DNA from: Amphiscolops sp. MND2022
Taxonomy: Eukaryota
Direction: 5' to 3'
Assembly: GCA_964187785.1 (NCBI GenBank)
Contig: OZ076409.1
Location: 31,188,001 to 31,252,000 of the forward strand
Length of the DNA stretch: 64,000 nucleotides
Part shown: piece after piece, positions 33,270 through 62,853 of the stretch
How the letters are laid out: each line of letters opens with the position of its first letter
How positions within the stretch are numbered: the stretch's first letter is position 1
Notes under the pieces: model-generated
What the model saw: the letters and a program-made list of their open reading frames with translations, nothing else
What the model was told of the DNA's origin: nothing
Databases searched by the model: none
Program-made: the position numbers and the translations under genes

Positions 33270-34928
33270 TCTATATTTTTTGAGACGCGAAAAGCACGAT
33301 GCGACCGAGAGCATCAAGCGATAGTTGAAGAAATTGAACCTGTCCAAAGTGAACTACGATCTTCAACTAAGCGAGGGGAACAAGGGCAAGAGATCCAAAC
33401 TGCGCGGATGGATGCTATGGACTATCGAATGGCGGAAATGAAAGATTTACAGGCGCAAAGAGAGGTTCGCATAGAGGCCCAAAGGAAAGAAGTGTGCATT
33501 CAAATTCAGGCGATGGGGACTATGCTCAAAAATATCCAACCCCGACCGACCGGTAGTACCATCAAAGACCTGTTGCAGGACACTGAAATATCGCTGCAAA
33601 AATCCACGAAGAATGTCACTCTCAAACCCATGGAGGATGCAATGATCGTAGCAAAACTTTTCGGTTCGAGGCACCTTTTGACGAAATATCCGCCTCAGCA
33701 TCCACTCCACTCAACCAGCGTAGAACCAGCATCGACGAGCAAGCTTATTCCGCTAACGGCAGAACCTAGCAAGAAGGAACCTATCAATGACGTAATAACC
33801 ATTGAGACCTGGAGCTTGGGTATGACCGGCTTGGGAGAGCCAACATATACTGTGGACCTGAGAGAGCCCACAAGTACCGGCAGGCCGACCGATGCTGTGT
33901 GTCCTTTTCAAACTGCGAATGCAACCCAAGGGGAAACAACTGCTGAATACCATACTGCGGACAACGGGTTGCCCCCGGGCAACCCCCGTGCCAGCTGCAC
34001 CAGACGTAAAGAAGCAACGATCCCAGAAACCCTGGCGACTCTATCAATTCTACACGGGGTAGTAGCCTCCTACCGCCCGCTGCCAACGAAAAGACATATA
34101 TATCCCCGGAACAACTTAGATTCATCGAGGCGATATACAAGGCCATGTCGTAGGAGCTTGCACCACTGATTGCCAACTGGGACCAAACAAGGATCCGACC
34201 TACCATTTACAAGGGCACTAAGGATGGCACAAATGATGGCTGGCTTCCCCTTATGAAGCGATTTCTTGAGAGGGTGCACTCTAAATCGACTAAAATTGAT
34301 AAGACTTGGGCAATCATTGACCGCCTGGAAGGAGAAGCAAGGAATTATATCATCAATAAGTCCGATGCCGAGAGGGACGAACCAGACAAAGTCTTCGCCC
34401 TGCTAGCTAGTCGATTTGGGACGGGAGGCAATCGCATGCAAGTGTGACAATCCTTCATGGCTCGCATCCAACTACAGGAGGAAGACTGGATGCAATTTCT
34501 GGATGCTCTGGAAGGCTTGCGCACCCAAAGCTTCCCGGACGAGCCCATCACCACGGGTCGTTACGGAATCCTGCAACGTTTCATCGATGGCGTTAGCAAC
34601 CCAACGCTGCAACAGGAGCTGTCCGTAGTATACGCAGCAGAAAGTTGTGGTATCTGACCGACCCACCCACGGTAGAGTCCTTGAGGTTTACGACGCGGCA
34701 ACTTCGACGACATCGGCCTGCAACATCCAAACCCTAAGATACCAGGTATGCAATGCGGTCAAGGCCTCATCCTTTCGTGCCAGGAAAGATAGTCGATCCG
34801 GCACCAGGCCTACCACAGAATGTGCTACCACCAAACCCGGGACAGCGGGATGCAAAGCAATCCCCGATTATACCACCAGGTCCAGCGATAGGTGAGGACG
34901 AGGTTCGGGTGAAACAAGCGCCAGTGCC
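33270..34928 (+). pseudogene. Decayed Ty3/gypsy-like LTR retrotransposon gag
   Basis: Coiled-coil N-terminal part, then capsid-like KTWAIIDRLEGEARNYI...VFALLASRFG...RIQLQEEDWMQFLDALEGL...LQRFIDGV (major-homology-region-like QxxxExxxxFxxxL) and a Pro-rich tail. Frameshifts and an in-frame TGA at 34445. Truncated at 34929. Confidence 0.75.
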
Positions 34929-35240
34929 CATTACGATACACGTACCGGTAAGCTGCTGTCAGTCAAGCTGCGTAATCTGAGTAAAATGGTAAAATGGTCA
35001 TTCAGCGTAAGTTAGTCAAGACGGTCTATGCTTCAACGGTGTAGCAAAATCAACGCGCGTAATGGAAAATTGTGTAAGTTAGTCAAAACACGTAATTAGA
35101 AAAAAGCGGAAGTTAGTCCAAAAATATTCTTTTTCGTAAGTCAGTCAAAACGTTGACTAACTTCCACTTTTTGCAAATTGAGGGACTCCTATACTTCCGA
35201 AAAGTGGAATGTGGTCAAAGTTTTGACTAACTTACACCAT
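34929..35240 (+). mobile_element. CACTA/EnSpm-like transposon terminus with subterminal repeats (candidate left end of a large element)
   Basis: Begins CATTACGATAC, the same terminal 11 bp as the 2146 MITE, exactly where gag coding stops. AAGTTAGTCAA recurs at ~35009, 35076, 35109, 35138 and inverted at ~35153 and 35223. Confidence 0.6.
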
Positions 35241-35997
35241 CTTTATATGCATTCAAAACTCAGTGTTCATTTTAATTCTAATTCATACCACAGCATCATA
35301 AACCAGTCAAAGTAAACAATGATTCAATAAATAATTAGTTAACATTACTGAGCTCTACCGTGCATAGTACGTATAAACTGCATTCAATGCAAGTTGCACA
35401 CGTGAACACGTGTGTTTCATCCACGCATTTACGTGCAAATAAAATACCTTGTAGCTTCTAATTAGTACAATTGATTGATCTGTGAACAGATTTCCTATTT
35501 TAACAAAACAATTTCAAAGCAGCCCTCATTAATAGTTGCCTAACTAATTTTAATTTTGGTCCCTGTCGTGAGCACAGTCACCGGAATGATTGGTTAACTT
35601 GTTATTTTGGTCTGGGTATTTTGAGCCAGGGTATTGGCAAGGATCTATTTTGATCCCTGTCGTGAGCAACATCAAGAAAAGTTGTAACAAATAATCTATA
35701 CGAAGTTGAAACTTTATCAAACCGAAAACAGTAGTATATGGAATACCGATCTTGAATTATTGAACTAAAAACGAAGTTTGGACCATGTGCCTTATCCTCC
35801 CTCAGATAAATACTGTTTCTTATCCAACAACACCCCCCCCCATCCTTCAATTGGTCAAATGGAAAAGAGGATGAGAGAATTGATTTCAAAATTGAATTAC
35901 TTTGTATCATGGTTAAGCATTAAATTGAATTGAACGTTACATATACGGTACATGTATGTTTTAAAAGTTTATGAATGTGTGCAAAGCAGCGGCAAGT

Positions 35998-36703
35998 GGG
36001 GATGTTGGCGCGGTGGATAAGTCCATCGGATGTGACTGTTAGTCACTGAGTACCACAGGATCGATCCCAGCCATTAGCACACTGGCGAATCGATACATAC
36101 AACTCTTACAAAGATACCCTTCATATTTGGCAGCTCATGTCTCCGAATATTCCACATTGAAGGTATCAGCACCGCTGCAACATCCTTTTTGATGAGAGGA
36201 ACTCCAAGGTTTGACCTTGTTCTGTGCCGCAACTTTGTGTGCCCCACAAATGATGCAATGATGATTGCTAATGATTGCAATGATTAGAGATGGCGAGATA
36301 CTAGTATCCAAATTCTGGCACCCATTCCTGGCTGCCGATGATATTCATAAAACTCTCACAAAGACACCCTTCCTATTCGGCGTCTCATGTTGCCGAATTT
36401 TCCACATTGATGGTATTAACACCGCCGAAATATCCTTTTTGATGAGAGGAACTTTGATGGTGAATTCCCAAATAACATAAGAGCAAATAACATAAAAACG
36501 AAATTAGTTTCAAATAACATAAAAATGAAATGAGTTTGACTAAACATAAAAATAAAGTTGTTTACGAGAAGGTTTTAGCTGTCAAAAGCATTCACAATTC
36601 AAAAGATTCACTCAAAAAAGTATGAAAATTACAAATAAAATTTCGTGAGTTCGATTACTTAACCGGGTATTCGGTTTTATTTTTGTTATTTGAACCTAAT
36701 TTT

Positions 36704-36773
<70 letters not shown>

Positions 36774-36900
36774 AAAATCCCACATTGAAGGTATCAACAC
36801 CGCTGTAACATCCTTGTAGTAGTAGTATTAATAGTAGAAAATCCCACATTGAAGGTATTAACACCGCTGTAACATCCTTGTTGATGAGAGGAACTCTTGA
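35998..36900 (+). mobile_element. tRNA-derived SINE-like element with duplicated body segments
   Basis: A-box-like TGGCGCGGTGG, hairpin GTGAC-TGTTA-GTCAC and B-box-like GGATCGATCCC. The segment ccacattgaaggtatcaacaccgctg...gatgagaggaact recurs at ~36152, 36402, 36779 and 36844. Confidence 0.55.
36704..36773. repeat. (GTA)n microsatellite, ~23 units
   Basis: Perfect trinucleotide run, the same motif as the large TAC tracts but on the opposite strand. Confidence 0.97.
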
Positions 36901-39167
36901 ATGTAAACTTCCTTAAAAAGTTTAGACCGGTCCGATTAACTGTTTAAACTGATTGATTACGCAAAAATAGTGTGAAGAATGTTTGTATCTCAAATTGAGA
37001 TTCTCAATTCCAAACTCTCACTTTGAAAAAAAATTAAATTTATGGTTTCTAGTTTGTATTCAACTTGAATACAACTAGAAACCATCAATTTAATTTTTTT
37101 CAAAGTGAGAGTTTGGAATTGAGATACAAACATTCTTTTTTTGAAATCTTCTGATCTTTTTTTGATACCTGTCGTGAGCTTCAGCAAAAACTGTTCCGAA
37201 AAATTGTTTTTTCGATTAACTGTACTCTTTTGTACGAAAGAAAGGAAAGTAAAGACAAGATTAAAAAGCCATTAGTGTAAAAGTAACCCGCTTTTGAGTT
37301 TTGTAAACGAACGATTTTCATAAATCAGGGAAGTTTACAGAAGTGTAGTTCCAAACTGAACGAACTGTTTCATTCTTTTGTTTACCATTCATCAATCAAA
37401 TTTTAAGTTGTTACAGCTACTCATGGTTTTCTTTAAAGATGCGAATAAGTCCTACCTTATAAGGTAACGAAAGTTTCACTCATCATGAGTGATGATCAGC
37501 TCTCATTTCCTTATAAGGTACGCGCTGTCCCATTTCTCTGAAAAAGCTACCTTATTACCTTATTTGGTCAATACGGTGATTCATCGTTGACGAACAAGCG
37601 TGCGCGTACTACCTTATTTGGTCAGTAAGTGCCTGCTTTAAAGTATTTCAAGTTTGATCGCGGTAAAATTCCAATTAAATTGGCGGTTATCAGATCTTCT
37701 CGAAGAGACCAATTTCCCTTATGAGTAGGCATTGGATTTATTTGGAAATTACAGTAGTAGCAGAAGCATACAAAAAAAAATGGATACCATTTGGTTGATG
37801 GCTGGACAATACGGAAAAAAAATACGGAAGAAGCGTTGAATATGTGAAAGTAAAAACAGTCTTTACTTCTGAGTCAGAAATAAATACTGTTTTTATTTTC
37901 ACATATTCAACGCTTCTTCCGTATTCTGAGAAGTACTGAGATTAGTGATTGTTAATCGTGTCGCTTCTCAGAAACGTCAGTTTAGCTAAGTATTGAATAA
38001 TTTCTATCAAAATAGATATAAACTTATGTAAGGCGAAATATGGAGAAACATGACATTTGGATACAAATAAATCCTAAGCCTACTCATGATTGTTCGCTAT
38101 GGATGAATCAAATGAAGATGTTTGGAATTTGGCAGTCAGAATTTGTAACAGACAGCAATATCATTGACTTGTTGGTAAATATGAACGCCAATGCGAATTC
38201 TAAAATTGATGATTGACACTTCAATAGTGATTCTTTCTCACCACTGTTACAATACGCTTCTGACAGCAGAAAGTGGTTCGCAATACTAGCCCCGAGAAGA
38301 AAAGTTTAGCTCCGAAATTTATCATTACTAGAAAAGCAAAACGGTTGACCGTTGAATCCTCTCCCTTTACAGAAGTTTCAACAGTGTTAGTAGGTAAGAT
38401 ATTGATAGTTTTGTTTCCTTTCCGTAGTATTCAGCTATCTAAAAATTTATTCTCTTCACTAAAAGCTTTAAATATAGTATATCTTCAAACAAACGCCGGT
38501 TTCACCTCCTTTGGAAAAACGAATAATTCTTCTATATTGAATCTGAATCAGTTACTAAGGAACTGGATATAAGTTGAGTCGGACACTTTTCAATGTCCCT
38601 CATATTATCGTCACGGCTGTGATCACGCTCACGGCAGGGACCAAAGTTCAGAAATTTGATTGAGAGTAAAAACATTTATGGTAAACAAGGTAACTCAGTA
38701 ACAAACAAAATCCTGAAATTTGGTCCCTGTCGTGAGCGCAATGTTATTAAACAATTCATTAACTTGTCAGCATAACAACAAATACTGTCTGCCAGACAAC
38801 AGTGGCCGACAATAGTTGACAAATTGTTTAATGCGTAAATTTAATCATTAAATTTACGCATTAAACAATTTATCAATTATTGTCGGCCAGACAGTGATGA
38901 TGAATTGTTTAATGATAAATTGTTTAAACTGAGTTGCAGCTAATTTTGGTCCCTGGTGTAAGCGCCTGATGTAATAAAACGTTCCTATGACTAAAATGAC
39001 TCCGATGACTTCTGATCAAGGAAAACGCTAATTTGAAAATTCCATTTTGTAATTTTTGTATTTATGATACTTTTATTAAAAAAAATGCAATAATCATGAT
39101 CGTAATCATTTGAGGATCACACCATTTGAATATCATGAGAAAAGTTACATGACAAATGAAGTTGAAA

Positions 39168-41178
39168 TTAGGAGCAATGTTCCTTTACGTGCATCCTATA
39201 ATTTTCCATTGTCTTGAAATTAACATTGGATACGAGTGTCGCGTGAACATAAATGTTGCTGTTGAAGTTTAGAGTTGATGTTTTGTCAACTTTGAATTTC
39301 AGGGACGTAATGACAGCTGTTCCATCCGCAACTTTGTCCCATTCGTTGCCCAATATGTGGTCCCATGCTGATGTTGAAAAAGGGCCGTCGTCTTCTTTGA
39401 TGGAGAATGTCACTGGGCCATTTGTGACACCGAACGCGTGAATCGTCGCATCAGTGCAAGGGGCAAAATCTTGCTTGATGTCTTTGACTCTGCTGCGTCC
39501 ACTGAGGGAATTCATCAGCAAGTTTTTCAGGTTAGAATATGCCCAATACACTAACGCATGGTCGTCGTATAACGGCGCGCCAGGTGCGTTTTCAACTGCT
39601 CCCAGTCTTTTTTTACAGTTACTTACAGGGACTGTTGCGTTAAAGGAAGGATCGTCCTGTTTTTCGACTTCTACGAGAAGTTTCGTCTTTAAATAGTAAA
39701 TAGAATTAATCTTCCAATCGCAGCCCAAAATTTCAACAATGTCTCCCTTGATGACGACTCCGGTGCTGATGGGGACACAAACTAGTTCTTTTCGTTCAAG
39801 TGGGGTACTTTTGAAACTCTGGGAAGGTCCACCAAATATGGCCTGGGATGGTATTGCATCAGGATTACCGAATAATTTATCGTAGTCACTATTCCAAAGT
39901 TAAAAAAATATTAGAAAAATGTTTGAAAAGTACTACAACTAACCCATTGAACCTATTTTGGTTGGTGATATGCGAATGATAATAGGTATTTTTGCCAAAA
40001 TTGAGAACTCAATTCGCTTCGGAAAAACTGAGGATAAAGCTCTTCGGAAACTTTTCCTAGTAGTATTGTCAAAAACATTTATGTATTCTACAAGAAAAAT
40101 CAAATCAACTGTACGTGCTCTTTCTCGGGAGGCTGCCAACAACTTGCAACGTTAAACTTGCAATCATTCAACCCTCATAGTCTAGCTAAAAAATAGTTGT
40201 ACCTCTTTTAAAAAAAATATTGAAGTAGTATTTTCGGTAAGCCTGCTTTACATCAGTTTTAGTCTTCTTTTTAGGCATCTTGGCGGGGATCGTGGCCTCT
40301 ATTCCGCGGGTCACCAACACCGTGACTTTTTTGCCACCAAACACCGTCTTTTTGTCGCATCTTGAAGTAACGTGTTCTTCGTCAGATTCATCCGAGGACT
40401 CGGAGTCCTCGGGTTCTTCGAATTTCACTTTTTTGAAAACGGATGCTGCCTTTTGTGACGATTCGCATCGAAGCTGGTAGTATTTGATGGGTACCAAATT
40501 CACATTTTCCAGCTGTTCTTCGAAAAAAACGTTTTCCTCTATTGGTATCACAACTGGCGATATCAACATTTCTTTACGGAAGGGATCGTTTTTCATTACG
40601 AAACCTTCTTCGATGTCCCCTATGTGTCGGACGCCGTCTTTAGCATGGGCCAGTGTGTAATGAACTTTATCGTTTCTAACACGTTTTTCTTTTATGTAGC
40701 CCAGAACATCAAGGCTCAGTGTCAGTTCAACGCTACGGCTGTAGCTTGGAATTGGCGTTTCGTTCTTTCGGATGGGCCATTTCTCTGGAAAGTCGTGGAA
40801 TTTTGGGGGTGTTCTAACGACTCCTGCTGCATGTTTTGAGTTGTAATCTAACCATTTGACTTTCGCCTGGAAACAAAAACGTTTTAAAATGTAACTCCTT
40901 GAACAAAATTCATTAGCAGTAGTGATATTTCTGAAAGCAACAAATGGCAAGTCTGAAAATCGAATATCTCTAAAACAACAGCGATTTCTGAAAAAAAATT
41001 TAGAGGATGAAAGTTTCTTAGATTTTTATGTATGTTTATTTGAAGAATAAGGATGAAAATTTAATACCTCATGAGTTCGGTGAAATTCGGTGACGTAGGC
41101 TGATCGCCAAAGTCCACATTCTTCCTCGAAACATTGCAGGAGTTCTCCGACTTTGAAATTTTTGGAGAATGTCTGCAT
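39168..41178 (-). CDS. Intron-containing gene (or two genes) with N-terminal Tudor/chromo-barrel (Royal family)-like domain
   Basis: Exon 41178-41068 (MQTFSKNFKVGELLQCFEEECGLWRSAYVTEFHRTHE, GT donor) splices in phase 0 to the AG acceptor before 40866 (AKVKWLDYNSKH...). This gives the FxVGExxxC...W..A.V.....VxW..Y pattern of Tudor-knot domains. An acidic patch and KKKTK follow. A further open exon runs ~39888-39168, but its join to exon 2 is unresolved. Confidence 0.55.
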
Positions 41179-42011
41179 TGTCTGTTTCGCACTCGGTTCA
41201 AGACTCGGTACTAGTAGTGGGTTTAAGAGGACTAAATTCAGTGTCTTTGTAGTGAAATGAGACTAATATTATGTTGCTCTAAGCAAGCTAAGTTAGCAAA
41301 AAGACTTCAACTTGAACTGACTTCAACAAAAAGTAGAATAACTTCAACTTAAACTTGTCACAGCCACAAAACCAAATTGTGTTAAATTGGTCCAGAATGA
41401 TATACCGGCCCTCGGGCGTTAATTTGAACCAATATGGTCAAAACTTAGATTTTCGGATAATCAGTTGAATTGCACAATGGAAAAATTAGTCTATTTAATG
41501 ATGCTATTCATTACTATCCAATTTATAGTAATGAATGATGCCTCCTATGATGGGGATGACCATCATTACAAGGCCCACTTCATCCAATATTCAATCTTGG
41601 TTGAAACCTAAACCACAAAACCAAATTGGGGTAAATTGTTCCAGAGTATTTTGCCGGCCCGGGGGCGTTAATTTGAACTTGATTTTCGAATAATGATAAT
41701 TATGAAGTGATTAGATAATGATGCCCTGTCCTGGCTGACTTCAAGTCACGCTGATAAGTCACGCTGATAAGTCACGCTTTAAGTTACGCTGATTGACCAT
41801 CTTACGCTGCATGACTGAAATCCATTCTACCGGGAAGTGTCTCGTAATTACATCGTAAAATCGAAAAGGGAAAAAGTTTTTGAATTCATCATTTGAAATC
41901 AATTCCTCGTCAAGTTCAGACCTCAATTTTATTCAAACTTCTCAACTATATTGTTGCAACAACCAGTTTACTAATCTCTTGAATTCGAGAATCAAACTGA
42001 AATTTTCCAAA

Positions 42012-45829
<3,818 letters not shown>

Positions 45830-46096
45830 GAGAAGCCAAATTGCATTATTTTCTAGAAATATCGAGTCCATTTTGCAGGAGGCCCGGAGGCCAATTTGCA
45901 CAGCTGAGGCCAAATTGCACAAGAGGAGGCCAAATTGCAGAGGATCTATTATTGTGCGTTTTGGAGTCTTTGCCATAGAGAGAGCATCGAGAAACCGTTT
46001 TGCACTTTTTTCGAAACGGTGCATTTGGCACCCGACAATTGTCAATAGGTCAACATGCCACGAAAATTCAAATTGGTCTCTCTACAGATAAGCCAT

Positions 46097-47075
46097 TTCG
46101 CAGACTCGAGAATCCATTTTGCACTTCTTACGTAATCATGGCTAAGCCAAATTTCATTTCGTAGTTTGCATTCGGGAATCCAATCTGCACAATCATTTTC
46201 AATACTTCAACCCAACCAAGCTCAAAAAAAGGGAAATGCAAATTGGCTTCCCTACAGATAATCCCGATGTGCTCCTTGGCTTCTCGACTCTATCCACAGC
46301 CGTTTCACACACTCGAGAATCCATTTTGCACTTCTTACGTAATCATCGCTAAGCCAAATTGCATTTCGTAGTTTGCATTCGGGAATCCAATCTGCACAAT
46401 CATTTTCATTACTTCAACCCAACTAAACTCGAAAAGGGAAATGCAAATTGGCTTCCCTACAGATAACCTCGATGTGCTCTCTGGCTTCTCGACTCTATCC
46501 ACAGGGGTGCAGTTTGGATTCTCGACGTTTCACACACTCGAGAATCCATTTTGCACTTCTTACGTAATCATGGCTAAGCCAAACTGCATTTCGTAGTTTT
46601 CATTCGAGAAGCCAATCTGCACAATCATTTTCAATACTTCAACCCAACTAAGCTCAAAAAAGGGAAATGCAAATTGGCTTCCCTACTGATAATCCCGATG
46701 TGCTCCTTGGCTTTTCAACTCTATCCACAGGGGTGCAATTTGGATTCTCGTCGTTTCGCAGACTCGAGAATCCATTTTGCACTTCTTACGTAATCGTCGC
46801 TAAGCCAAATTGCATTTCGTAGTTTGCATTCGGGAATCCAATCTGCACAATCATTTTCATTACTTCAACCCAACTAAACTGGAAAAAAGAAATGCAAAAT
46901 GGCTTCCCTACAGATAACCTCGATGTGCTCTCTGGCTTCTCTACTCTATCCACTGGGGTGCAATTTGGATTCTCGTCGTTTCGCAGACTCGAGAATCCAT
47001 TTTAAACTTCTTCCGTAATCGTGGCTAAGCCAATTTGCACTTAATAATTTGAATACGAGAATCCAATCTGCACAA
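46097..47075 (+). repeat. ~225-bp tandem repeat (~4.4 copies) containing copies of the element's TIR motif
   Basis: Units start at ~46097, 46302, 46527, 46753 and 46978. Most junctions read GTGCAATTTGGATTCTCG-spacer-CGAGAATCCATTTTGCAC. Confidence 0.9.
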
Positions 47076-47080
47076 CCATT

Positions 47081-47478
47081 GGTCACGGAATAACTGTTTC
47101 GACGTTAGTCATGGCATTTGGAACTTGGTCACGGTATCCCTTTTTCGAAGTTATTCACGGTATCGCTTTTTCGAACTTAGTCACGGGATCGCTGTTTCGA
47201 ACTTGGTCACGGTATCCCTTTTTCGAATTTATTCACGGTATCGTTTTTTCGAACTTAGTCACGGTATCCCGTTTTCGAAGTTATTCACGGTATCGCTTTT
47301 TCGAACTTAGTCACGGGATCGCTGTTTCGAACTTGTTCACGGTATCCCTTTTTCGAACTTAGTCACGGGATCGCTGTTTCGAACTTGGTCACGGTATCCC
47401 TTTTTCGAATTTATTCACGGTATCGCTTTTTCGAACTTAGTCACGGCATCCCGTTTTCGAACTTAGTCACGGGATCAC
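47081..47478 (+). repeat. ~26-bp minisatellite
   Basis: Unit approximately gtcacggtatcgctttttcgaactta, repeated ~15 times. Confidence 0.92.
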
Positions 47479-50141
47479 TGCATTCTATATCAAATTTAAT
47501 TTATAGTGCAAGTACATGTATTACATGCATCCAAATTGCATAAGCCCGTCGATTCCAGTTTGCACAACTACTTTAAGTATTGATTTCAATGACATTTTGA
47601 AGTCCTTGTAGTAGTTGGTAGTATGCCGTTAAAAAGGTTCAAGGACAAAATAAAATGGACCTGAATTTAAATGGTCATTTTCGGGAAAAACTGGTAGTAA
47701 AGAAAAATGTCGGGCTAAAGTGTAGGTTATGATAGAAAATCACAACCTTGAAACACTGACACCCATTATAATGTATTTTTAAAGAGGCTCTCAGTTAGGG
47801 GATCACATAGTATCGCCCATAACAAGACCCACGCCGAGAACGTGGCCTCTGAAGGGTCTCACAGTGTAAATTAAGAAACTAATAGAAATATACAAAATAA
47901 CTACATATTCACAAATTCTAACTACAATACATTATCAACTGGTAATCTACAGTAAGGACATCTAACTAATTCTGCATTCGCTAAACTATCTAAATACTGT
48001 CTAACACAGTCTCTACAAAATAAGTGTAATCTATGTGATACATGTGAACTCTGTAAATCTACTATTCTAGTTAGTTTTCTAGATTAATTATTTTTTCGAC
48101 AAATAATTCTAACTCCTTTGAGAAGCAGCAGCTTCCTTTATGCAATGGGCAAGATTTACAGAGATTGATTCAGCTATTTTCTAGTATAATTATGCACATT
48201 AATTAAAATATAATCATGTATTTAATAGAAGACTCAAATTTGATTGGCTGCCTGTTTCACCAATGACTTCACAGTTAAACACTTGCGATGAAAAACATGA
48301 CTGCAGGTACTTAAAAGTTTGAAAAGACTGAAGATTATAACAAGATTGCAGAAAAACGATGAATTGGTGTACATACCTTCATACGTCATTTTTAATTCAA
48401 ACATTTTGTAGGCGAAACATGTTTTGTTTGAAACCCATGATGAACATTACAAACAAAGAACATTTTCTTTTGATTGGGGGGATCAAATAATGGGTTGGTT
48501 AATTCTTGTTTCCCCATCAGCTACAGCTTGTTACAATTTCACCCAATTCCAGGAGTATAAATCACAGAAATTTCCTAATAAAACTTTTAACTACATATGT
48601 TTAATATTCAGGATGTTTGGTGAAAGTATTGATGGTTATAAATACAGTCCAAGTGTACATACGAAATACGAAATCTTTGTTCGAACAATAAACTTTTTGT
48701 CAAACAATAATGAGACAAAATTATATTATATAATATTAAAAAATTACTTTTAAGGACAGTAAATATAAAAAAAACTAATTTTGATGACAGTAAATATAAT
48801 AAAAAATTACTTTTAATGACAGTAAATAAATAAAATGTGATTTACTTGATTGATCATTTTACTTTAATGATTTTTTACTTCCTAAATTGAGAAGCTAAAT
48901 TTCAGCACTCGAAGTTGTTTAGTTGTTTGTTGACAAATATTTGGCATTTTGACTACCAAAATAATAATTAAGTACCAAGAATCAGAATAACATCATGTAC
49001 CAGAACTAAAATGTAAAAGTTTATTATATCCTAATTCTATATCTATTTATATATTTTCTAGATTTAATTTACATACAAGAGGAATAAGTTATTCATATCT
49101 ACCCGGGAATTACATCGTATATAATAAAATAATATAACATCTCTTTAAAAAAATCAAATTCTTGCTTTGATAAGACTTTCAATGCATTTTTTTAAAAAAA
49201 AATATTAGACCTTACTTTGCTCAGAGTAGCCTTATTCTGATAAAAAATAATCTAATCCAATAATGTCATTTTTTTTAACAAAAATGTATCGAAACTTCTG
49301 TGGCGACAATCGTTCAATTTTGCATTATTTTCGAAATTATTCGTAAAAAGATAACAATAATTGATTGTACTTTCTGCAGTTTTCTATTATATTGTTGATG
49401 AAAAAACACGTAAATCTAATTTGCAGTTGAAGAAATAAAAAATATTCAACCAAATAACTAACTTTAATCAGTTTCTAGGAACTTAATTTTTGGATTTCTT
49501 TTCATTCTTTTTAACGAAATTGTTAAGATCATTTGGAATTTAAAATAATTCAAAACTTGATAAGTCAAAATCGATTGGAACAAATTCAATTTCAAGGTTA
49601 CCTAAACTATACTATTTAATTATTTATCTTTGATAATAAAACAATATTATAACAATAACGTAGAACTGTATTATACTATTTGAATATATTCAAAGTTCCA
49701 AGTGAAAACAGTAAGCATTCAAATAAAATGTAAATGGAGGAACTAAGTTGAAAGGGAATGACGTAAATTTGAAAGTGAATGACAAGTTATTCAATTTTGA
49801 ACAAGAGGAAATTCACCGAAATTCAATATGCAGTGAGTGTATGCAGTGGTGGTGACGTCAACCACGTGTTCAGTTCAGCGCCACACACACGCGCGCGACT
49901 GTACTTATTACACGTTGAGTGCGAAGTACGTGTATTACGTACACAATGTAGCTGACCAGCACTGTCTGAGCAGTGGTAGAAAGTACCGTAGTACTTTTCA
50001 GTTTAACTCAGCCATTATTCATCTTCTGTGAAGTATACATTTTCATTTTCATTTGAGTGTAAAATTAAAAAGATTTTATTTCATTTATCAAGAATATTTG
50101 TACCATTAATTAAAACAACATCCTGTGCCAGGGAATAAACG

Positions 50142-50437
50142 TAAATCGTAAACGAAGAGAGTTAGAAGATTTTTATTGTCATATTTGGACTCGTATAGAA
50201 GTTGATTCGGGAGGAGTGCGGCTGCACAATCTCCACTTGGGTCGACGTTGTTGCCCCCCAAGCCCCCATTGCCCAACTGCAGTAGTGACGTCACTCCTGT
50301 AATTGAGCAGTTGGGCCTCGAGGGTCAACAACGTCGACCCAAGTGGAGATTGTGCAGCCGCACTCCTCCCGAATCAACTTCTATACGAATCCAAATATGT
50401 CATTAAAAATCTTCTATCTCTCTTCGTTTCCGATTTA
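50142..50437. repeat. ~300-bp imperfect palindrome (foldback/MITE-like)
   Basis: Arms 50142-50253 and 50326-50437 are near-perfect reverse complements. The symmetry axis lies in AGTGAC|GTCACT. Confidence 0.9.
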
Positions 50438-51718
50438 GATATAATTAATATTTTTATATTTAATACAAATATATTTGAAATAATATATTATATATTATAA
50501 ATTAAATAAAAAAAAAAAGTTTTACATGTATTTCATTAGATCGGTCGGATATATAAAAGTTCGAATATAACGTTTTACTGAATAGAACTTTTGGTCTCAC
50601 ACAATTTTGGACAAAACTTTTATTATGCTTATTTCTAGTCAGCAACAAATATATTTATTTTTATAGAAACAACACAACATTTTTGGAAATATATCTTTTT
50701 TCCCTCCCGAAATACACCTTTTTTTGTATCATCTCAACCCCCCCCCCCAATACGAAAGGTTTTCTGTCTTATAAACCTTATAAACCCAACTCTGTCTTAT
50801 ATTAATAACATAACCTTCTTACAGATGAAATTTGTAGTTGAAATTTGACTGTCTATCAAGCTGAACTGAATTTAACTGGTGGAACTCTCGGCCAATAAGA
50901 AAGCGCCATTGTGCAGGTTATCATAAATGCATCGAATTATTTCATATTTATAATTCAATATTTATAGACAACATGAGCCGATTCCATTTCTAGTTACTAT
51001 TTGATCCTCAAACTGAGAACCTCTCGAAAAATACCTTATACTTGAATTATAAGTCGTTAATAAAAATATAAATTACTTTATTAAATTATTATAGGATTTG
51101 AATTTACAATTTACAATTGGTTTTTTATGAAGTACCTGCAATGGCAAAACTGTCTATTTATAAAATGGCAATAAAATTGCAAAAAATCATCTACATAATA
51201 TATTAATAACATAATATAATTGTAAAATAAAATAATACAATTGTATATTGATACAAATATACAGTTCCAAATGATTATAGCAACAAACCCACCTCCCAAA
51301 TATATTGGATATAAAACTGAATTTCCATCTTTGAGCAACAAATTTACAACTTTCGAGAATACCACCAGGAAGTAAATATGAAATTAAAGCCAGCCAGTGT
51401 TTTCTTTCCTACAACTTCGGTAACAATAATTTGATGTGCAAACTGGCCTCTTTCTCAACTAGCCGGGGTGGTGCAATTTGGCTTCGACGTTCTGAACTCG
51501 ACGGCGAGTCGCTAAAGATGGGTTAAAAAAAGTCGATTTTTTTTCACGAATGGACGTTTTTTGGGCGTTTTGCATGTTTGGTAAAAAATTTTTCTCCAAC
51601 TCTTTCGGGAAGATGCTTAAATCATGGATGCCAAATTGCACGGCCAATTTGCAGGGGGGTTTTGTGCAAATCGGACTGTCGATTGAAATCAAGGGGTGCA
51701 ATTTGGATTCTCGGAGTA

Positions 51719-54399
<2,681 letters not shown>

Positions 54400-55053
54400 G
54401 TAACTCTCAAGTGACCGAGACGCCTGAAAGTCCTACCCTCTTTTGAAACTTGAAGTGTAATCATTAGTGAAGATGATCTTAGTACAGTAGCGTGATTTTA
54501 AAAAAATGCCCGGCCTGCCTCTACACTGAGCGTTATCATAATTGATCGATTGCATATTTGCTCAATTTCAACTGATTATATATTTTCAACACTTTCAACT
54601 GATATCATATTTCAACATATTTTCAACTAATAACTCTTTTTCAAATAGTTTTTTTTTACCGAAGACAGTATTTTTCTTCCTTACATGACGATGATACGTA
54701 TGATACTAGTGGAGTCTCTCATAAATTAAAAAAATGTTTTCAGGACATCCAAAGAAGTTTTTTTTGAATTTTTGAATTACGTTTCGAGTTACTTGGTTTT
54801 TTTTCTCTGGGGTTAACGCTTTATCGCATAACGAGACAAACCGGTAAAATAGGTTTCAGGCACGCAGCTGTATGATCTCGGACATTTCAAAAAGTCTGTC
54901 GGAAGTTTGCAATTTGTTTTTTCTTCTTCTACCGTGACGGTCACTTCTGGTGGCAATCATAACTTTTGAAATTGTTTTCATAATCATTAAGCCAGTATCA
55001 TCGTTTTTGTGATTTGTTGCTGGTTTCTTGCTTAAACAGGTTTTGTATTTCAG

Positions 55054-58000
55054 ATCGAAATGATACAAAAACCAATCATCACTTATGCTGGCATCAATTA
55101 CGTGAAACTCACATTCCTGAACGTCTTGTTCCCGAATGTGTTCCTGCTGGAAAGCAATGACTGCCTTCTTCCCAATGATCGCAGAAAGGCTACAGATTTC
55201 CTCAAGAAGCATTTAAAAGGTTTATTTTCTTTCCTTTTTTAATCAAAAACATAACTAGAGATCGTAAACGTAATCGTCCAAAACGTGGTTGTGAGATGTA
55301 AGGAATGCACTTGAGCATAGCATTGTAGTTAATCGTTCGTGGCACGTTTTGATTCATGATTGTTGCAGGACTGAACGTAAACTTCTCTGATGTATACAAG
55401 CCCCATGGATTCAAAGAAAGGTGTCCTTTGTTGCGCGAAGACGTATTCGATTTATTGATAATATCTGCACCTCCATCATTGATTCCCTGGACGACTGAAA
55501 GAGTTGGCTATATACGACAATTTTTCCCTTCGTTGCCCATTCCAGACTCAACCTCTTTTTTAACAATTCAAGTTGACGCTATTTTTTCACAACAGTCATT
55601 GGAAACAGGCGTTTCGCTGCAGAATTTTTGGAGCTCTTCTTTGAAGACTATATCAGAATCAGAAATTGCATTGGGTCATTTTATTGAAACTCTCAAGCAG
55701 TTTTTCACAAGTCAAACTTTGAAAATCAAGAAAAAAACACCTTAGTTCATAAACTTCTTCATCTATTTCTGCCAAACTTGTTTTGCCTTGAAAGGGAAGA
55801 CATTCAAATGGAGATTCAATGCCTACTTACTCTCAGTAATCCTCAGGATCTTTTAGTCAAAATACGTCGACTTATACAATGCCCTTTCATCAAATCCACC
55901 ATTCTCCCTTCAAGACGTGAACTTCAAGCAATCACAAATAAATTGAACGAAGATTTCAGATTAATACTTACTCCCAGAAGAACCCCCACTGGGTTCCGTG
56001 TTAATCTTGTTACATTTGTCAGATTCGTTGCCTGCAATTTGTATAACAAGACCAGCTTAGTCGGCTTGAGAGTCGACATTTATGGTGATGCAATGTCTCG
56101 GGGAAAAAAGACGTCGTACGAATGGCCTTCCGAATTTTGCAAAGCGGCATCGAAACTGAGCAATCCTCAACCCATGTCTTCACGTTTGCTGTGTTTCAGG
56201 TGAGTCGTTCAAGTTTTAATCTAATTTTAACTTTATTAACTTGATTTTAACTTCATTCTAACTTGATTTCTATTGTGAGCTACATCAAAATGTTTATTGA
56301 GAACCTAATTTTGGTCCCTGTTGTGAGCTACACTTAATAGTTTAGTGGTCACCACCACTAAAAACTCTGAGAACATTCGTGCGTTACGGTAACGCAAATC
56401 TAAATTTGGTCCCTGTCGTGAGTTACACTTAAATGATTACTTAGTAGTTGGAAAACCAATTTGGTCCGTCTTGAGCAGCACTCAAATGTTTTGTTGATAT
56501 AATTCTAAATTTTTCCCTGTTGTGAGAAACTGGAAGTTGAAATATGAATTTTTGGAATGTTTCCCAGGGTAAAGATGTGCGAATCAACCTGGAATACAAT
56601 CTCGCCATGTCAGAAGTGCTTGGACGCCCTGGATGGCTATACAACGAAACAAAGGCCTTGCATGATGAAGGTGCTATACTGAGTTGCTCGGGTGATTCAC
56701 CATTCCAACTGCGTCTTTTAAAAGGTGTTAGCAGTGATGTCTCTTGTCCGTCAGAGATGTGTCTTTATGTCAGTGATCCTGCACATATTTCGAATCCACC
56801 AGTGAAACAGACAAAAAAAGACACCGCTGAATATAAGAAAGAAATGGAAGGAAGGGGGGTGATTCTTCCGTCAACTGTCGATTATGCTACTGGCCGAAGA
56901 ACAGAACTGATCATTGACATCAACGAATGCATCCCAAAAGACTCTCTCATTTTTCTCAAATCCACTTTCAATACATGCCCTGATTTGCTGCATATGGTTG
57001 TCCGTTCAGTCGAAAGTGACTTGAAGTTGCATGTGGACTCGATGTTGCTGTTGAAAGACCATGCAGCAATATGTAGACTCGAATGTAACATAACGGAACG
57101 AAATGTGAAACCGCCGAGATTCAAGTTTGAGATCGTTGAAAAACTCTGCAAGGCTGTATCTCTCAGTTTCAGAGACGCCGAAGTCATAATATCCGACTGC
57201 AACAGAATCAGCGACTATGGCCGATCAGACTGCCCAATTTTTGAAGGTGTGTATTCATTCGAAACACCTCATGTCTACAAAGCTGACCAAACAACCTCTA
57301 CAACGTCTTATAACGTGTTGATATCATTGGTTGATGGGTTGGAGACATCTTTCACAAAAGGAGTGGGTATTTCTGTTCGGAAACTGGCTGACCTCCAATT
57401 CCAATCTCTTTACCAGTTACTTGATTTGCTTCCACAGAGAGAATTCAAAGACATTTCAAAGTGTAAAGATCTCTATGAGATTTATTACCAGTCAACTTTA
57501 TGTCTTTTCGGTGATCGTGCGTTGACGCCATACAAATTGAAACTGGATATTTTACTCAGACTTTTTGAGAAGGGTGAGCTTCTGTCTCCATTTTATTACA
57601 TGACAGAAGGAACTGAAAAAAGCCACCACACGGCAGCCAAAGACTACAATACGAAGACAATGCGTGATGGTGGCAATGATGCTTGGAACATGTCATCCAG
57701 TTATCTCGATATTCAGTTTTCCTTCTACCGTGCAATTGATTTATGTTCTTCAAAGTCTTCGACACTTGAATCTTACCGGAAGTTGTATGGAAAAACCGAC
57801 GTGACAAAGACGTATCTTGAAATTTGCTGTGAACCCATTCCAGAATCTGAACTTGACTATCTTAGAACTGAAGACATGTTTAGAGGTATGCACTTTGTCA
57901 TTCTTGGAACATATGGTCACCTGAAAGAAACTCAAGCGAGTCTTGAGAAGAAGATCACTGAAAATGGAGGAAATGTTGTTTCCAATGTAGACATCATCAA

Positions 58001-58394
58001 CAGAAGCAAGCTGAATTTTTTGAGCCATCACTATTGCATTTTACCAAATCGAAATTGTATCGACGCATTCATTAAAGGTCAACAAGGTAAAGAAAAAGCT
58101 GCAACGAAAGCGCTTTCCAATACGATACTCGGTAACTGGATTTACTTGAACGCTGAATTTGTAATCGCTTGTGTACAGAAGAAGTCTTTGATTGAACCCA
58201 AAGGCTATGTTTTTGAAGTAGATGAGTCTGCGAGAGCCAAATTCAAAACGATGAAGTACATATCTATGGCCCCACAATTACAACGTCAATCAAACCCCCT
58301 ACGACATGGTTCATTAACTTACCACACAGCAATGCGGAAGTACAAGAACGCACTAAAAAAGGCCACATTGAAGAGAAAACTAGACGACGTTTAA
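55054..58394 (+). CDS. RAG1/Transib/CMC-type DDE transposase with C-terminal BRCT domain (5' end unresolved; two 1-nt shifts in A-runs)
   Basis: Exons ~55054-55219, 55369-56199 and 56568-58394 have phase-compatible GT-AG introns. Motifs are VDIYGDAM (D1, 56087), CSGDSPF (D2, 56694), CPDLLHMVVR (DxxH) and LTPY...YMTEGTEKSHH...KTMRDGG (E, 57615), paralleling RAG1 CDGM / GYDEK / IDALH / ITNY...ASEGNES. The BRCT-like part is FRGMHFVILG...LEKKITENGGNV...YLNAEFVIACVQKKSLIEPKGY. Confidence 0.8.
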
Positions 58395-58725
58395 TACCTA
58401 AAAACTTACTTATTTTATTACTAATTCAGTAGACAAGGTCCCTTTGACCGCTTCATTGTCAATTCAGTGCTATCTACTAGGTGAACCAAAGAAAATGGAA
58501 TGTACAAAAATTTTTCGAGTTTACATTCCCCCTGTTACCTTATTTACTATTGAATGATCTATGACAGTTGTCTCAGGAATGATCTATGAGGACGTGTGAC
58601 TTCCTGGAATAGCGTGACTTGTTGTGAGTTGTTGGATGTATATATTTGACAATCATTTTATAGTTAATTTCATACAATATTGAATGGTGTATAACTTATG
58701 AGCGAATTTTTTCAGTTGATATTAA

Positions 58726-61700
58726 ATGGCAACACTGACGACCACGCCATCAACGTCTCGTCGAACGACACCAGCGAAAGTCCCATGCGGCCAAGGTTCG
58801 ATAACAATTTTTTTGTGATCAAGCTGTAACGTAATCAAGCTGTAACTTTTTTTTCACGGAAAAGTTTAATCTGACATATGGCATTCCTTTTAGGCACTTG
58901 TGAACATATGGCATTCCTTTTAGGCACTTGTGACGTTGTGGACAAGCTGTCCAACATCCTACGCCACCGCAAAGTCTGTCCCCGAATGCCACGAGAGCAG
59001 TTCAAGCTCATGGAGAGAACGTGCCAGCTCTGCGGCCAGATCATTTCCGCCAAAAAACTGCTGAAGAAGCACTACAATACAAAGTATTGTAAGGAGCAGC
59101 AAAAGCGGGAAGCAGAAGGCCTGCCTACCCGAATGTACCAGTACGGTTAGTCATTACAATGTATGTTAAAAATTGATCAACCTGTAACATTTGAAACTCA
59201 ATGATTTTGAAAAAAAAGTCTAGGTCTCAAACAAAAAGTGTGTTTTTATTCATGTAACTTCTATGTTACAGCAGCTGCAAAAGGCTTGACGCGGAGGCCT
59301 AACTTATGCTACGGCAGAGGTTGTGGCAAGTCATATGTTTACCCTTATGACTTGCGCGTGCACCTTTTGAAGAATCCTCAATGCCAGGAAGGAGCGAATG
59401 TGAGTGCCTGTCCTATTTTTTCTCTTTAAGAACACATGTTGAATGATTTGATTGACCATTTGATTCTCGAAACGCCGTGTTTTAAACGGTGACAATGTGA
59501 CTGGAACTCCGAATGAGTCATTTTATCGTGGCAACTGTTTAGGCTGCAGTATCTTTGGGCTCCGATTCGTCTACTAGTAGCAACACTGACGAGCGATTCA
59601 GGCCAGAAGATTTCAACCACATTCCTTCTGATGTGTTTGGGTCTGATGGATTTTTCAAGTTCGCGATGGAAGTGCCCCTCGACTACAAGTTTCCTGTAGC
59701 TCAATGGGAAGGCAACGTTGACGACCATGTCGTCAAATTCAATTCCCTGATGAGACACAGTGTGCCTCTGTTGTGGCGTGGAGGTGTCAACCATTGCCAT
59801 GGTTTGAAGCTGCCTCAAGTGGAAGAACTCGCTTTCACTGAAGTTGTCCAAGAGCTTCTAGTCCCCCAGAAGCTACAAGCAAGTGCAGCAACCATCAATG
59901 TCAAGTCGGCAAAACTTGGAGAAGTAAGTCTTTGGGAGAATTACTTTCAATTTGAAGCTTGTATTTTTCGTAAAATATCTGGAACAACTGCAAATTGATC
60001 CCTGGCGTGAGCTCATTTTCCAACTTGGACAAGTCTTTGGTAGAATTACTTTCAATTTCAAATTTTCAAGTAATGCTTCAAGTTGAAGCTTGTATTTTTC
60101 GTAAAATATCTGGAACAACTGCAATTTGATCCCTGTCGTGAGCTCATTCTCCAACTTGGGCAAGTTGAATTTGTCGAACAACTGCATTTGAACTATTCTA
60201 ACAATGAGAAAGTTGTCCGCCTTATTCCCGTCTTAGTCACTTTATGATCATTTCATTTCAGAGTCGTGACCTCAGTCTCGACGAGTTCAAGCAGGAGCTC
60301 ATCAACGCCGACAGAAGCAGCGTTTACTATCCTTTAAACGCTATAGACATCGCCATGCAGCCAAAGGTAAACAACATTGAATGAGCTCCTTTGATTTGAT
60401 GGAAAACGCAAATCCACTGAAAAACGACTTTTCTTTTTCTGTTTTTCCCCAACCCCCTGTTTGCTAGTAGTTGCGTACAAATTGGACTTTGAGGATTTTA
60501 TTCAACATAATGCACATTGTTTTGAAACAACTTCAACTTATATTGATTTTTTTGTCTTTTCAGTCCATCTACAGCGTGCCAACGATGATAAAAAAGTCGT
60601 CAGTGAACCACCTTGTGGACGAGCTGGTCAGTAAGTCAGCAGAACCGTTCTCAGTAGCGACTTCATACTACTTGCTGATCTCCAACGATGGTTGTCAAAC
60701 AACTTGGCACACGGACTTCAGTTCAACATCTGTCTTTTATACAATCTTGACTGGGTCCAAGACCTTCTTTCTGGTTGCGCCAACTGAAAACAACATGAAG
60801 TTGTTCAATGCCTGGTCCAAACAAGAATGCGACGACATGTAAGTTGAATTTTTTCACCAAGGAATTTCAGCTTTTGTGTTCATCTATTTTTGTATTTTTT
60901 GCATCATTTTGCATCACGGGCCATCATTTCCGTACGTGTTTTCATTGTATTTGCGAAATTTTCAATTTTCAATGCACTATATTGTTTTTGCATCGCCGAA
61001 TATTTTAAGAATAGTCGCTTAGAGTTCCAACAGTTTTCGTTTTAGGCCAACATTTTTTGGATGCCACAAAAGACTGGAGGGGGGTTGCCTCAGGGTTACT
61101 CTTAATCCGGGCGACGTTTTCGCCATGCCGTCTCAGTACATCCATACAGTCCTCACAAGTGGAGACTCTGTGGCAATAAGGACGAATTTCCTTTCAGAAG
61201 GTCATTCGAACCAGTTCATAAAGGCGATCATTGAAGAAGACTCCACCAGGGAGCATGAGAAGTTTCCGGGCATGTTGGAAATGCTAGCTATTTTGATGCT
61301 CAAAGCATCAGAGAGATGCATGATAACTCCGGACTTCCTTCGTCTTCACAGAGCCATTGAGAATCGATATCAAGAAAGTGAAGCTGTTGCTGTGAGTTGT
61401 ATTTTTTAGTTCACAATCGTTTAGAATCAAACTAAGTTATCGAATTAAGTATTTGTATAATGGAGCCGTGTTGTGACTCACAACAGGGACCGAAACTAAA
61501 ATTGGTAATCATCATGAATAATGTTGATGATGACGTTGTGGCTCACGACAGGGACCAAAATTAAAGGTAGTAATGATTACCAATTTTAATTTCGGTCCCT
61601 GTCGTGAGCCACAAGGTCATCATCAACATTATTTGTTGATGATCAACAAAGTTGATCAAATAGCTTGGTGAGTTATCACGAGTTTTGTTTCAGATTTGCC

Positions 61701-62325
61701 CCGAATTCAGCAAGGAGAGACTCGTTTACAATATTTGCTCGCGCAAAGACTTCGTAAACGATGTTTGTGTCAGCGCTTTCACGGAAACGGCCTCAAAAAG
61801 GGCATATCTTCTTTGCCCCAAGCCTTGCTTCAGAAGGAGGAACTGGTTTACAAACGAGGACGGCGTGAGGGTCCCGAAGGAAGCAATTTCTGAGGAGCGC
61901 CTCACTTTCTTTTGCCGAAGACCTGATGTTGACGAGCCGAATCGTGATATTTTAATCAGCTATGAGGAAGCCATCACGTATGTTCACCCGCGACCGTCAC
62001 AAACTGTCAGAGGTTTGCACAAAATGCCGAAAAGAAAAACCCTCGTTCAAGACCGTGGTAAGTTTGCTTATTTCAGTTACATCCTGGTTGTTTCGTCTTA
62101 ATATACATAGTGGTAATGTAAGTGATAATATTCAACTCAAAACTGGTCACCTGGTTGAACATCCGTAAGGCTTACATTTGATTTTCGTATTTCCTAAAAA
62201 GACTTCAAAATGAAATTAATGGAGTGGTAATCGAATTCAATGTTTTTGTTTCAGAATTCAGACCATCTACTGATCGTTACGTTGCTTCGATCATGAGCCA
62301 CCATGTCCCTGCATACAGCTTGTAG
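58726..62325 (+). CDS. Zinc-finger + JmjC histone demethylase-like protein (KDM2/KDM7-PHF8 type), 9 exons, ~653 aa
   Basis: Exons 58726-58795, 58924-59145, 59272-59399, 59543-59923, 60262-60366, 60564-60838, 61046-61391, 61694-62057 and 62255-62325 are all GT-AG, phase-consistent and stop-free. JmjC motifs are YLLIS..GCQTTWHTDFSSTSVFY...GSKTFFLVAPT..N and GDVFAMPSQYIHTVLT...TNFL. Three N-terminal C2HC-type fingers precede them. Confidence 0.9.
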
Positions 62326-62493
62326 TTGCGTACAGACTGAGTTGTGCTTAAAAAGTTCTCGATCATTGTTAACTTAACATGTAGAACTTTCTTGTCTCCG
62401 AGTTATTTGTTGTGCTCAGTAAGTTGTACACTGTGGCTCGGTATAAACTTGTAGCTTGAAAAACTGCTCTGGATTTTTCGAATGACCGTCAAC

Positions 62494-62853
62494 CAGGGGT
62501 GTTAAATATTGCATTGCAATACTATTGCAATACTAATAAAACAATCTTTTGTTATTCTGAATTTTGTTGAAACAATAATTGCAATTATTGTGTCTATGAA
62601 AAAGATTGTTTGAAAAACCAATCAAATCAATTTGTTGATCAAATTAACAACCGAAAATTGTTCGTTGATCATTATTAGTTTGACTGAAAAGTCCACCAAA
62701 TTGGAAGTATTTGGTACCCAACTCATGTCTCCGAATTCTTTCCTTATTGTGAAAAATCAACAATGTATTGTATTTGATAACGTTCTGAAAATAATTATTG
62801 TTTACAATTTTATTGCAATTATTGTGACCTAGAATAATTTTTTAACACCCCTG
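62494..62853. mobile_element. hAT-type MITE, 360 bp
   Basis: TIR CAGGGGTGTTAAA / TTTAACACCCCTG, with an exact 8-bp TSD CCGTCAAC at 62486-62493 and 62854-62861. Confidence 0.92.

Follow-up and report, generated by a model that had tools for sequence, protein, structure and literature searches.

A multicopy zinc-finger JmjC demethylase-like gene beside a RAG1/Transib-like transposase gene in Amphiscolops sp.: candidate cargo of a giant DNA transposon

The gene described here lies at 58726-62325 of a 64,000-nucleotide stretch of Amphiscolops sp. MND2022 DNA (contig OZ076409.1, positions 31,188,001 to 31,252,000; hereafter the window). It encodes a KDM2/KDM7-like JmjC protein with three N-terminal C2HC zinc fingers and follows a gene for a predicted RAG1/Transib-like transposase. 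We propose, with a probability of about 0.55, that this KDM2/7-derived finger protein is the cargo of a giant DNA transposon, and that the copies carrying glycine at position 439 demethylate repressive histone lysines on the chromatin of the element. It is very probable that a single transposon of 20 kb or more carries the gene together with a SET8-like gene. To judge by the conserved residues, the family is probably one of catalytically active lysine demethylases dependent on Fe(II) and 2-oxoglutarate. By analogy with VANC and REF6 and their motifs, the fingers might also recruit the protein to a motif in the introns of the element, and this part is tentative.

Splicing of the window at nine exons with GT-AG introns (Table 1) gave 1962 nt, corresponding to 653 amino acids and a stop codon, and no internal stop was present. 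The demethylase-like gene is genuine, and the clean nine-exon open reading frame (ORF) described in an earlier note, which was made from the sequence alone, was recovered. The intronless relatives P0199 and P0261 gave unbroken alignments across residues 193-505 (exons 4-7) and 172-388, respectively; since both align without interruption over the exon joins, the splice model is independently supported. A 30-bp duplication at 58874-58933 provides a second in-frame exon-2 acceptor within finger 1, 30 nt upstream.

The JmjC domain is encoded mainly by exons 6 and 7. Exon 6 matched the solved structures of KDM2A (E = 7e-10), PHF8 (E = 3e-9) and KDM7A (E = 1.5e-8) in the PDB, and exon 7 matched KDM2A (E = 3e-4). 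Residues H351/D353/H427, T348, K368, Y361 and N441 were spaced identically to KDM2A H212/D214/H284, T209, K229, Y222 and N298, the numbering and the roles of which in contacting Fe, 2-oxoglutarate and methyl-lysine are given in PMC11168414. The Fe(II) triad and the 2-oxoglutarate-binding Thr and Lys that had been noted earlier are present at the KDM2A-equivalent positions. No match to CXXC, PHD, F-box, LRR or JHD was found in exons 2-8 with Pfam at E 0.1, and the same library does detect domains of the CXXC/PHD/F-box/LRR types in P0221 and P0184. In a Pfam search for an N-terminal PHD finger, exons 2-3 yielded weak zf-C2H2 matches plus unrelated weak matches and nothing else. The JmjC matches, together with the lack of PHD or CXXC in the Pfam scan, support the earlier description of a KDM2/7-derived JmjC protein in which C2HC fingers replace these domains. 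The JmjC subtype and the spacing of the Fe, 2-oxoglutarate and methyl-lysine contacts are common to KDM2A/B (FBXL11/10), KDM7A/PHF8/PHF2 and yeast Jhd1. The window protein differs from all of these in its N-terminal fingers, an altered loop after the HxD motif, an unmatched C-terminal domain and the missing PHD/CXXC/F-box/LRR/JHD matches, and its gene is multicopy and lies beside a transposase.

The earlier note had called the protein intact, and this has to be qualified because of Arg439: the ORF is open and the catalytic residues are present, but the window copy has Arg at a position that is Gly in 22 of 23 sister clusters. Among divergent relatives 19 of 21, and among canonical proteins 47 of 51, have Gly twelve residues past the third Fe ligand; the window copy does not. 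We take position 439 to be the counterpart of KDM4A Ser288. Ser288 influences substrate specificity in KDM4A (PMC13632499), and in KDM2A the Asn two residues after the equivalent of position 439 contacts the methyl-ammonium (PMC11168414). Arg439 would likely obstruct the substrate pocket, and the window copy would be impaired unless the base is a read error, which is possible because the codon sits at the boundary of an A/G run.

The three C2HC finger patterns quoted in the earlier note exist as stated, although those that were scanned score below the Pfam cut-off. The C-C-H-C residues are C21/C26/H38/C42 in finger 1, C57/C60/H73/C79 in finger 2 and C110/C115/H128/C135 in finger 3, and the C-to-H spacing is x12 in fingers 2 and 3 and x11 in finger 1, compared with the C2H2 core C-x2/4-C-x12-H. 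The best PDB matches of finger 3 were ZNF410, YY1, GLI, REF6 (E = 0.004) and TFIIIA. The relatives P0132, P0261 and P0262 begin with a finger of the finger-2 pattern (C-x2-C-x12-H-x5-C; finger comparison E = 3e-4) and contain it within one ORF with the N-terminal half of a JmjC domain, a layout that indirectly supports the fusion of finger and JmjC exons. At the other end of the protein, the Cys-containing domain that the earlier note had left unrecognised matched no known family by five methods. Exon 8 gave no family in Pfam or PHROGs and no Atlas match; 1 of 100 candidates matched, a frameshifted sister, with no other match among the proteins compared, and the single-sequence AlphaFold model had a predicted local distance difference test score (pLDDT) of 38.8.

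Copy number was assessed with the exon-4 and exon-7 ORFs. The exon-4 cluster (90% clustering) contained 58 members with at least 117 contig occurrences. The 15 members listed account for 74 of these, with a single sequence on 42 contigs and identities of 91-100%. With exon 7, 25 candidates yielded 25 clusters; 20 of these clusters were on contigs of at least 14.9 kb and held 81 sequences. Exact look-up found three of nine predicted ORFs and neither of a pair of window ORFs. Because the gene is multicopy, it is not the sole host orthologue, and by both domain content and copy number the window protein is not a KDM2 or KDM7 orthologue. Six of the 14 listed exon-4 members other than that of the window sit on contigs identical in size to listed transposase contigs (n = 27), as does one of the 20 exon-7 representatives. 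The JmjC gene and the transposase occur on the same contigs, and their adjacency was seen in this window alone.

When exon 6 was searched against 1.84 billion representatives, 879 matches came back, and the best 150 were taken. The top of these were mostly unfamiliar proteins with HxDF[ST][GA]T[SA]V, compared with the usual HxDFGGTSV. Among 77 divergent relatives, H351 was kept in 76, D353 in 74, T348 in 72 and K368 in 70 of 73, and beyond the query exon H427 was kept in 21 of 22 and N441 in 15 of 18. To judge by its sequence, the window JmjC domain belongs to this divergent radiation, in which the catalytic residues are kept. No relatives were found in viral contigs or prokaryote genomes; one viral motif match (L013) was rejected as a relative, having otherwise no similarity to the window.

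The JmjC phylogeny suggested in the earlier note gave a divided answer. In a careful tree of 50 rows (27 non-canonical, including the window protein, and 23 of 36 eligible canonical proteins), which is unrooted and long-branched, has partly motif-defined labels and includes no confirmed animal KDM7, the 23 canonical proteins split off without the window protein (support 100/99), and the window protein grouped with four divergent relatives (100/100). On a quick tree of 141 of 151 rows, the approximately unbiased (AU) test gave p = 0.74 for placement of the window protein with the canonical proteins; the constrained tree scored 32 log units better, so the quick tree was not the best tree, and the careful tree was relied on for this reason. 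The direction of descent is one that we infer, given the missing root and long branches of the careful tree and a quick-tree AU test in which the canonical grouping was not rejected.

The ORF of the neighbouring transposase (56544-58394) stops 331 bp ahead of the start codon of the JmjC gene. Alignment with relatives of about 30% identity identified conserved DIxGD, SGDxP, DxxH and ExxEKSxH motifs in the transposase with two upstream exons, and the D, D and E residues would form the catalytic triad. Its ORF cluster has 216 members, and beyond these there are subfamilies (64-73% identity) and remote relatives (31-34%). A predicted model (mean pLDDT 56.6) was compared with 48,161 chains. Eight of the 50 fold matches listed were outside the BRCT region, and six of these eight were BbRAGL, HzTransib and four RAG1 chains. 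Over last-exon residues 52-354, BbRAGL matched with Z 8.6 (root-mean-square deviation 3.6, 156 aligned residues), HzTransib with Z 8.3 (4.2, 151 aligned) and the RAG1 chains with Z 7.0-7.6. ESM Atlas returned RAG1 families at 0.82-0.86, which is a lead only. The transposase thus shares with Transib and ProtoRAG (RAG1L) a predicted fold and the conserved D, D, E and D-x-x-H, and differs from them in its BRCT tail, in a candidate end starting CAT rather than CAC and in lacking conserved C(2)C and H(3-4)H motifs; no RAG2-like partner of the ProtoRAG kind was seen beside it. In this copy the frame shifts twice, at A-runs near 55730 and 56105. The first of these runs is variable across 10 sister proteins, four of which read through it, and this variation fits long-read error. 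Twelve loci on metagenome contigs (L001-L012) encode distant relatives of the BRCT-tailed RAG1-like transposase (best segments 29-45%), which extends the lineage beyond this genome.

Upstream of the transposase is a SET8/KMT5A-like gene. Its frame enters an (ACT)n array, interrupted by a 5.9-kb insertion with terminal inverted repeats (45829-51713), and the ACT frame stops about 600 bp before the transposase; the gene would be continuous across the array. The (TAC)n arrays at 45310-54399, of 173 and 894 units, are apparently a single array split by this insertion, which has 17-bp inverted ends and contains 225-bp and 26-bp tandem repeats and a spacerless palindrome (50142-50437) whose 148-bp arms are 90% complementary. 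The SET8-like domain (44364-45305) has Asn-Tyr in the cofactor-binding motif where human SETD8 has Asn-His, and given this its SET8-like activity is uncertain.

The candidate left end of the unit, a 92-bp sequence beginning CATTACG, occurs twice with unrelated flanks, and its 11 starting bases CATTACGATAC are also found at both termini of a 451-bp element (2146-2596). Ends of the CA...TG form are usual in CMCT elements (PMC12730594), and Transib/RAGL ends are CAC-starting terminal inverted repeats with a 5-bp target-site duplication (PMC7204232). The 92-bp sequence is a candidate for an end belonging to this transposase. The window contains no counterpart right end further downstream, and the unit would therefore span 20 kb or more. 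The CACTGTG heptamer at 62429 was dismissed as a candidate for that end, since there are 11 such heptamers in the window and chance is its likely origin.

The motif repeated through the element, which the earlier note had pointed out, was borne out by 17 copies in the window at three or fewer mismatches, compared with 0.14 expected, all between 35555 and 61609. All seven copies within the transposase and JmjC genes are intronic, in a region (55060-62325) of which 66% is coding, and copies in intron 7 are visible in read-through translations of three sister proteins. The remaining ten are at 35555-44251, three of them beside the candidate left end. Intron 4 (59946-60165) contains a 131-bp duplication that doubles one motif copy; it appears private to the window copy because most sister ORFs end earlier there.

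Table 1 Positions of the demethylase-like gene, its neighbours and associated repeats in the window
Feature	Position	Strand	Basis
Exon 1 (start codon; first Cys of finger 1)	58726..58795	+	splice model
Exon 2 (remainder of finger 1 and finger 2)	58924..59145	+	splice model, Pfam scan
Exon 3 (finger 3, Kruppel-like)	59272..59399	+	splice model, Pfam, PDB matches
Exon 4 (linker and N-terminal extension of KDM2/7-type JmjC)	59543..59923	+	splice model, ORF cluster
Exon 5 (segment before JmjC; colinear with P0199 and P0261, both intronless)	60262..60366	+	alignment
Exon 6 (T348, H351, D353, Y361, K368)	60564..60838	+	splice model, PDB match
Exon 7 (H427, R439, N441, post-JmjC helices)	61046..61391	+	splice model, PDB match
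Exon 8 (Cys-containing domain; basic PKRK stretch at end)	61694..62057	+	without family match
Exon 9 and stop codon	62255..62325	+	splice model
RAG1/Transib-like DDE transposase gene, C-terminal BRCT	55060..58394	+	inferred exons 55060-55219, 55369-56199, 56568-58394
SET8/KMT5A-like gene, SET domain ~44850-45200	44364..54444	+	Pfam E 2e-10; PDB E 1e-6
Seven TTTGGTCCCTGTCGTGAGC-like motif copies	56310, 56405, 59994, 60125, 61476, 61541, 61591 (56310..61609)	.	motif scan
Candidate left end, 92 bp starting CATTACGATAC	43964..44055	+	97% identical to 34929-35020

Several other features were observed in the window. A small element at 62495-62853, 170 bp past the JmjC stop codon, has CAGGGGTGTTAAA inverted ends and is flanked by 8-bp direct repeats, CCGTCAAC; we take it to be hAT-like. 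A multi-exon gene on the minus strand at 39168-41175 gave no Pfam or PHROGs match, and its first exon is, by eye, presumably Tudor/Agenet-like; as it is located between motif copies, it may be further cargo. The plus-strand ORFs 42972-43942 and 41859-42326, located between the two candidate left ends, had no family match. A broken ORF at 33192-34928, which by eye we assume to resemble a retrotransposon gag, ends where the CATTACGATAC sequence begins (34929). The stretch 6179-31490 is occupied by a satellite array of 178-bp units, in which higher-order periods of about 713 and 883 bp are present.

Under the proposed mechanism, the element would carry the demethylase to hold its copies outside repressive chromatin. 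Attachment to the element would be through the fingers, perhaps at the motif in its introns, the JmjC domain would strip methyl groups from nearby histone lysines, and this demethylation would permit expression of the transposase; the window copy itself may be damaged through Arg439. Binding of the fingers to the GGTCCCTGTCGTGAGC motif is putative and would fit its intronic placement. KDM7 substrates are given as H3K9me1/2, H3K27me1/2 and H4K20me1. These are compatible with anti-silencing, and H3K36me2, the KDM2 substrate, is likewise possible. H3K9me2 or H3K27me2 is our guess for this protein, with H3K36me2 or H4K20me1 as possibilities. A more ambitious form of the proposal is slightly more doubtful than motif recruitment itself: an undescribed RAG1-related giant transposon lineage would carry both a SET8-like writer and a KDM2/7 eraser, the fingers would read the intronic motif for sequence-specific self-demethylation, and the 77 relatives would be the trace of an arms race across many eukaryote genomes.

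A number of observations weigh against the proposed role, beginning with the fingers. The Pfam scan was done exon by exon, so that finger 1, which straddles an intron, was never whole in it; zf-C2H2 scores were 19 bits for exon 3 and 14.3 bits for exon 2, both below the cut-off of 25.2. The gaps between fingers are 14 and 30 residues, and each finger terminates in Cys; fingers that end in Cys may bind proteins rather than DNA, as in FOG/U-shaped. Three fingers so widely separated are a poor fit to the reading of 16 contiguous bases. The seven intronic motif copies fall into just three clusters, and the statistical weight of their placement is modest because of this and because much of the motif-free window is satellite. 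The non-canonical finger spacing and sub-threshold scores would suit a transposon cargo that does not act on its own chromatin through the motif: the fingers would bind proteins or other DNA, the enzyme would be broad or act on non-histone substrates, and the motif would serve the transposase or another element protein. Changes in the pocket loop relative to host enzymes (G355 to S/T in 74 of the 77 divergent relatives; G440 to T/V/I/A) also favor this alternative, as do the 10 of 17 motif copies that lie upstream, three of them beside the candidate left end. It is opposed by the best PDB matches of finger 3, which are DNA-binding Kruppel-type fingers, and by the resemblance of the intronic motif copies to VANC sites (PMC5735166), and we consider it unlikely, although it is the best placed of the alternatives.

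Further observations against the proposal concern the condition of the copies. H427 was retained in 16 of 19 sister clusters, and many sister copies are degenerate; eight divergent JmjC relatives that were looked up belong to clusters of one to six members, with no transposon context to read. The loss of H427 in 3 of 19 clusters, Arg439 in the window copy and the frameshifted sister copy P0001 are all consistent with the capture of a host gene fragment as a passive passenger, amplified without benefit to the element and now decaying. Such a passenger would hardly be expected to keep its catalytic residues across relatives of 30-60% identity, including at positions beyond the search query, nor would H427, G439 and N441 be retained in exon-7 relatives at 57-80% identity, and we regard this explanation as quite improbable.

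The remaining difficulties lie with the transposon itself. The fold matches, moderate with Z near 8, are borderline by the search tool's own guidance, no RAG1 match by sequence was found in PDB or Pfam searches of the transposase, and Foldseek gave BRCT alone among the matches listed. CMCT transposases carry C(2)C and H(3-4)H motifs in the interval from the second D to the E (PMC12730594), and these were not conserved in the transposase alignment. Since both the sequence-level match and these motifs were missing, we call the transposase RAG1/Transib-like rather than a member of the group. No JmjC neighbor was found at any of the 12 loci of distant transposase relatives, which are 1.1-6.9 kb long. 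Downstream in the window there is no right end matching the candidate left end, and no element end or target-site duplication was established in it for the JmjC/transposase unit. Co-occurrence on contigs is not adjacency. Contigs of 197112 and 197114 bp are both present, and because they differ by 2 bp, copy counts are perhaps inflated by more than one assembly version; together with read errors this may inflate the counts, yet not enough to reduce them to a single gene. A host gene cluster, consisting of the JmjC gene and a domesticated RAG1-like gene amplified by segmental duplication or by another mobile element, would account for the missing ends, the unconserved CMCT motifs and the repeat-dense region. 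It is less probable still, since the copies are 91-100% identical on many contigs, several transposase subfamilies occur side by side with conserved DDE motifs, and a CA-starting 92-bp repeat with unrelated flanks lies upstream of the SET gene. A reading of the gene as the only KDM2 or KDM7 orthologue of the organism, its reader domains having been altered, is scarcely credible: the best solved-structure matches and the AU test on the quick tree favor it, but it is already contradicted by copy number, and both the careful tree and the unmatched PHD, CXXC, F-box and JHD domains speak against it.

The proposed self-demethylation has partial precedents. The fingers of REF6 are C-terminal, and REF6 belongs to another JmjC subfamily; the effect of VANC is a loss of DNA methylation, and VANC is not known to be a JmjC enzyme. 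Arabidopsis REF6/JMJ12 is a JmjC demethylase guided to a DNA motif by its own fingers (PMC6497721, PMC7105484), but it is a host gene with four C2H2 fingers, whereas the window fingers are N-terminal, spaced and C2HC, and their motif binding is putative. In the VANDAL/VANC system of Arabidopsis Mutator elements, an element-encoded factor is paired with short motifs that have gathered in the non-coding sequence of the element, introns included (PMC5735166). Accumulation of motifs in non-coding parts is common to that system and the window element; the transposase superfamily differs, and VANC action was demonstrated by experiment, whereas that of the window protein is inferred. Fungal TET/JBP elements, HarbingerS SET and red-algal Plavaka PAG2/PAG3 are large DNA transposons, some of them CMCT, with SET or 2-oxoglutarate oxygenase accessory genes; the oxygenases described in these sources are TET/JBP or unspecified 2-oxoglutarate enzymes and not zinc-finger KDM2/7-type JmjC proteins (PMC12730594, 10.1101/2025.02.11.637652). 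The KDM4-like genes of an Amoebidium giant endogenous virus are intron-bearing, host-derived JmjC demethylase genes that have multiplied on a mobile element and for which a role against silencing has been proposed (PMC11244446). They differ in their viral carrier, their KDM4 subfamily and, as far as that source describes them, in having the JmjC domain alone; an endogenous virus as carrier was rejected here, no viral gene being detected in the window.

Plants, fungi, oomycetes and red algae are known to have transposons that bear chromatin enzymes, and KDM4-like genes occur in a giant endogenous virus. In a literature search whose scope left out Repbase and subscription journals, no cut-and-paste DNA transposon with a JmjC histone demethylase, zinc-finger-fused or otherwise, was found; Repbase entries could already describe the element. 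If the proposal is true, an enzyme, a reader and a candidate site occur together in one recently amplified element, and for this reason anti-silencing at the level of histones would be directly testable. The element would also represent an additional RAG1-related transposase lineage, BRCT-tailed and without the usual zinc ligands, and its relatives would form a pool of divergent demethylases whose specificities may be new.

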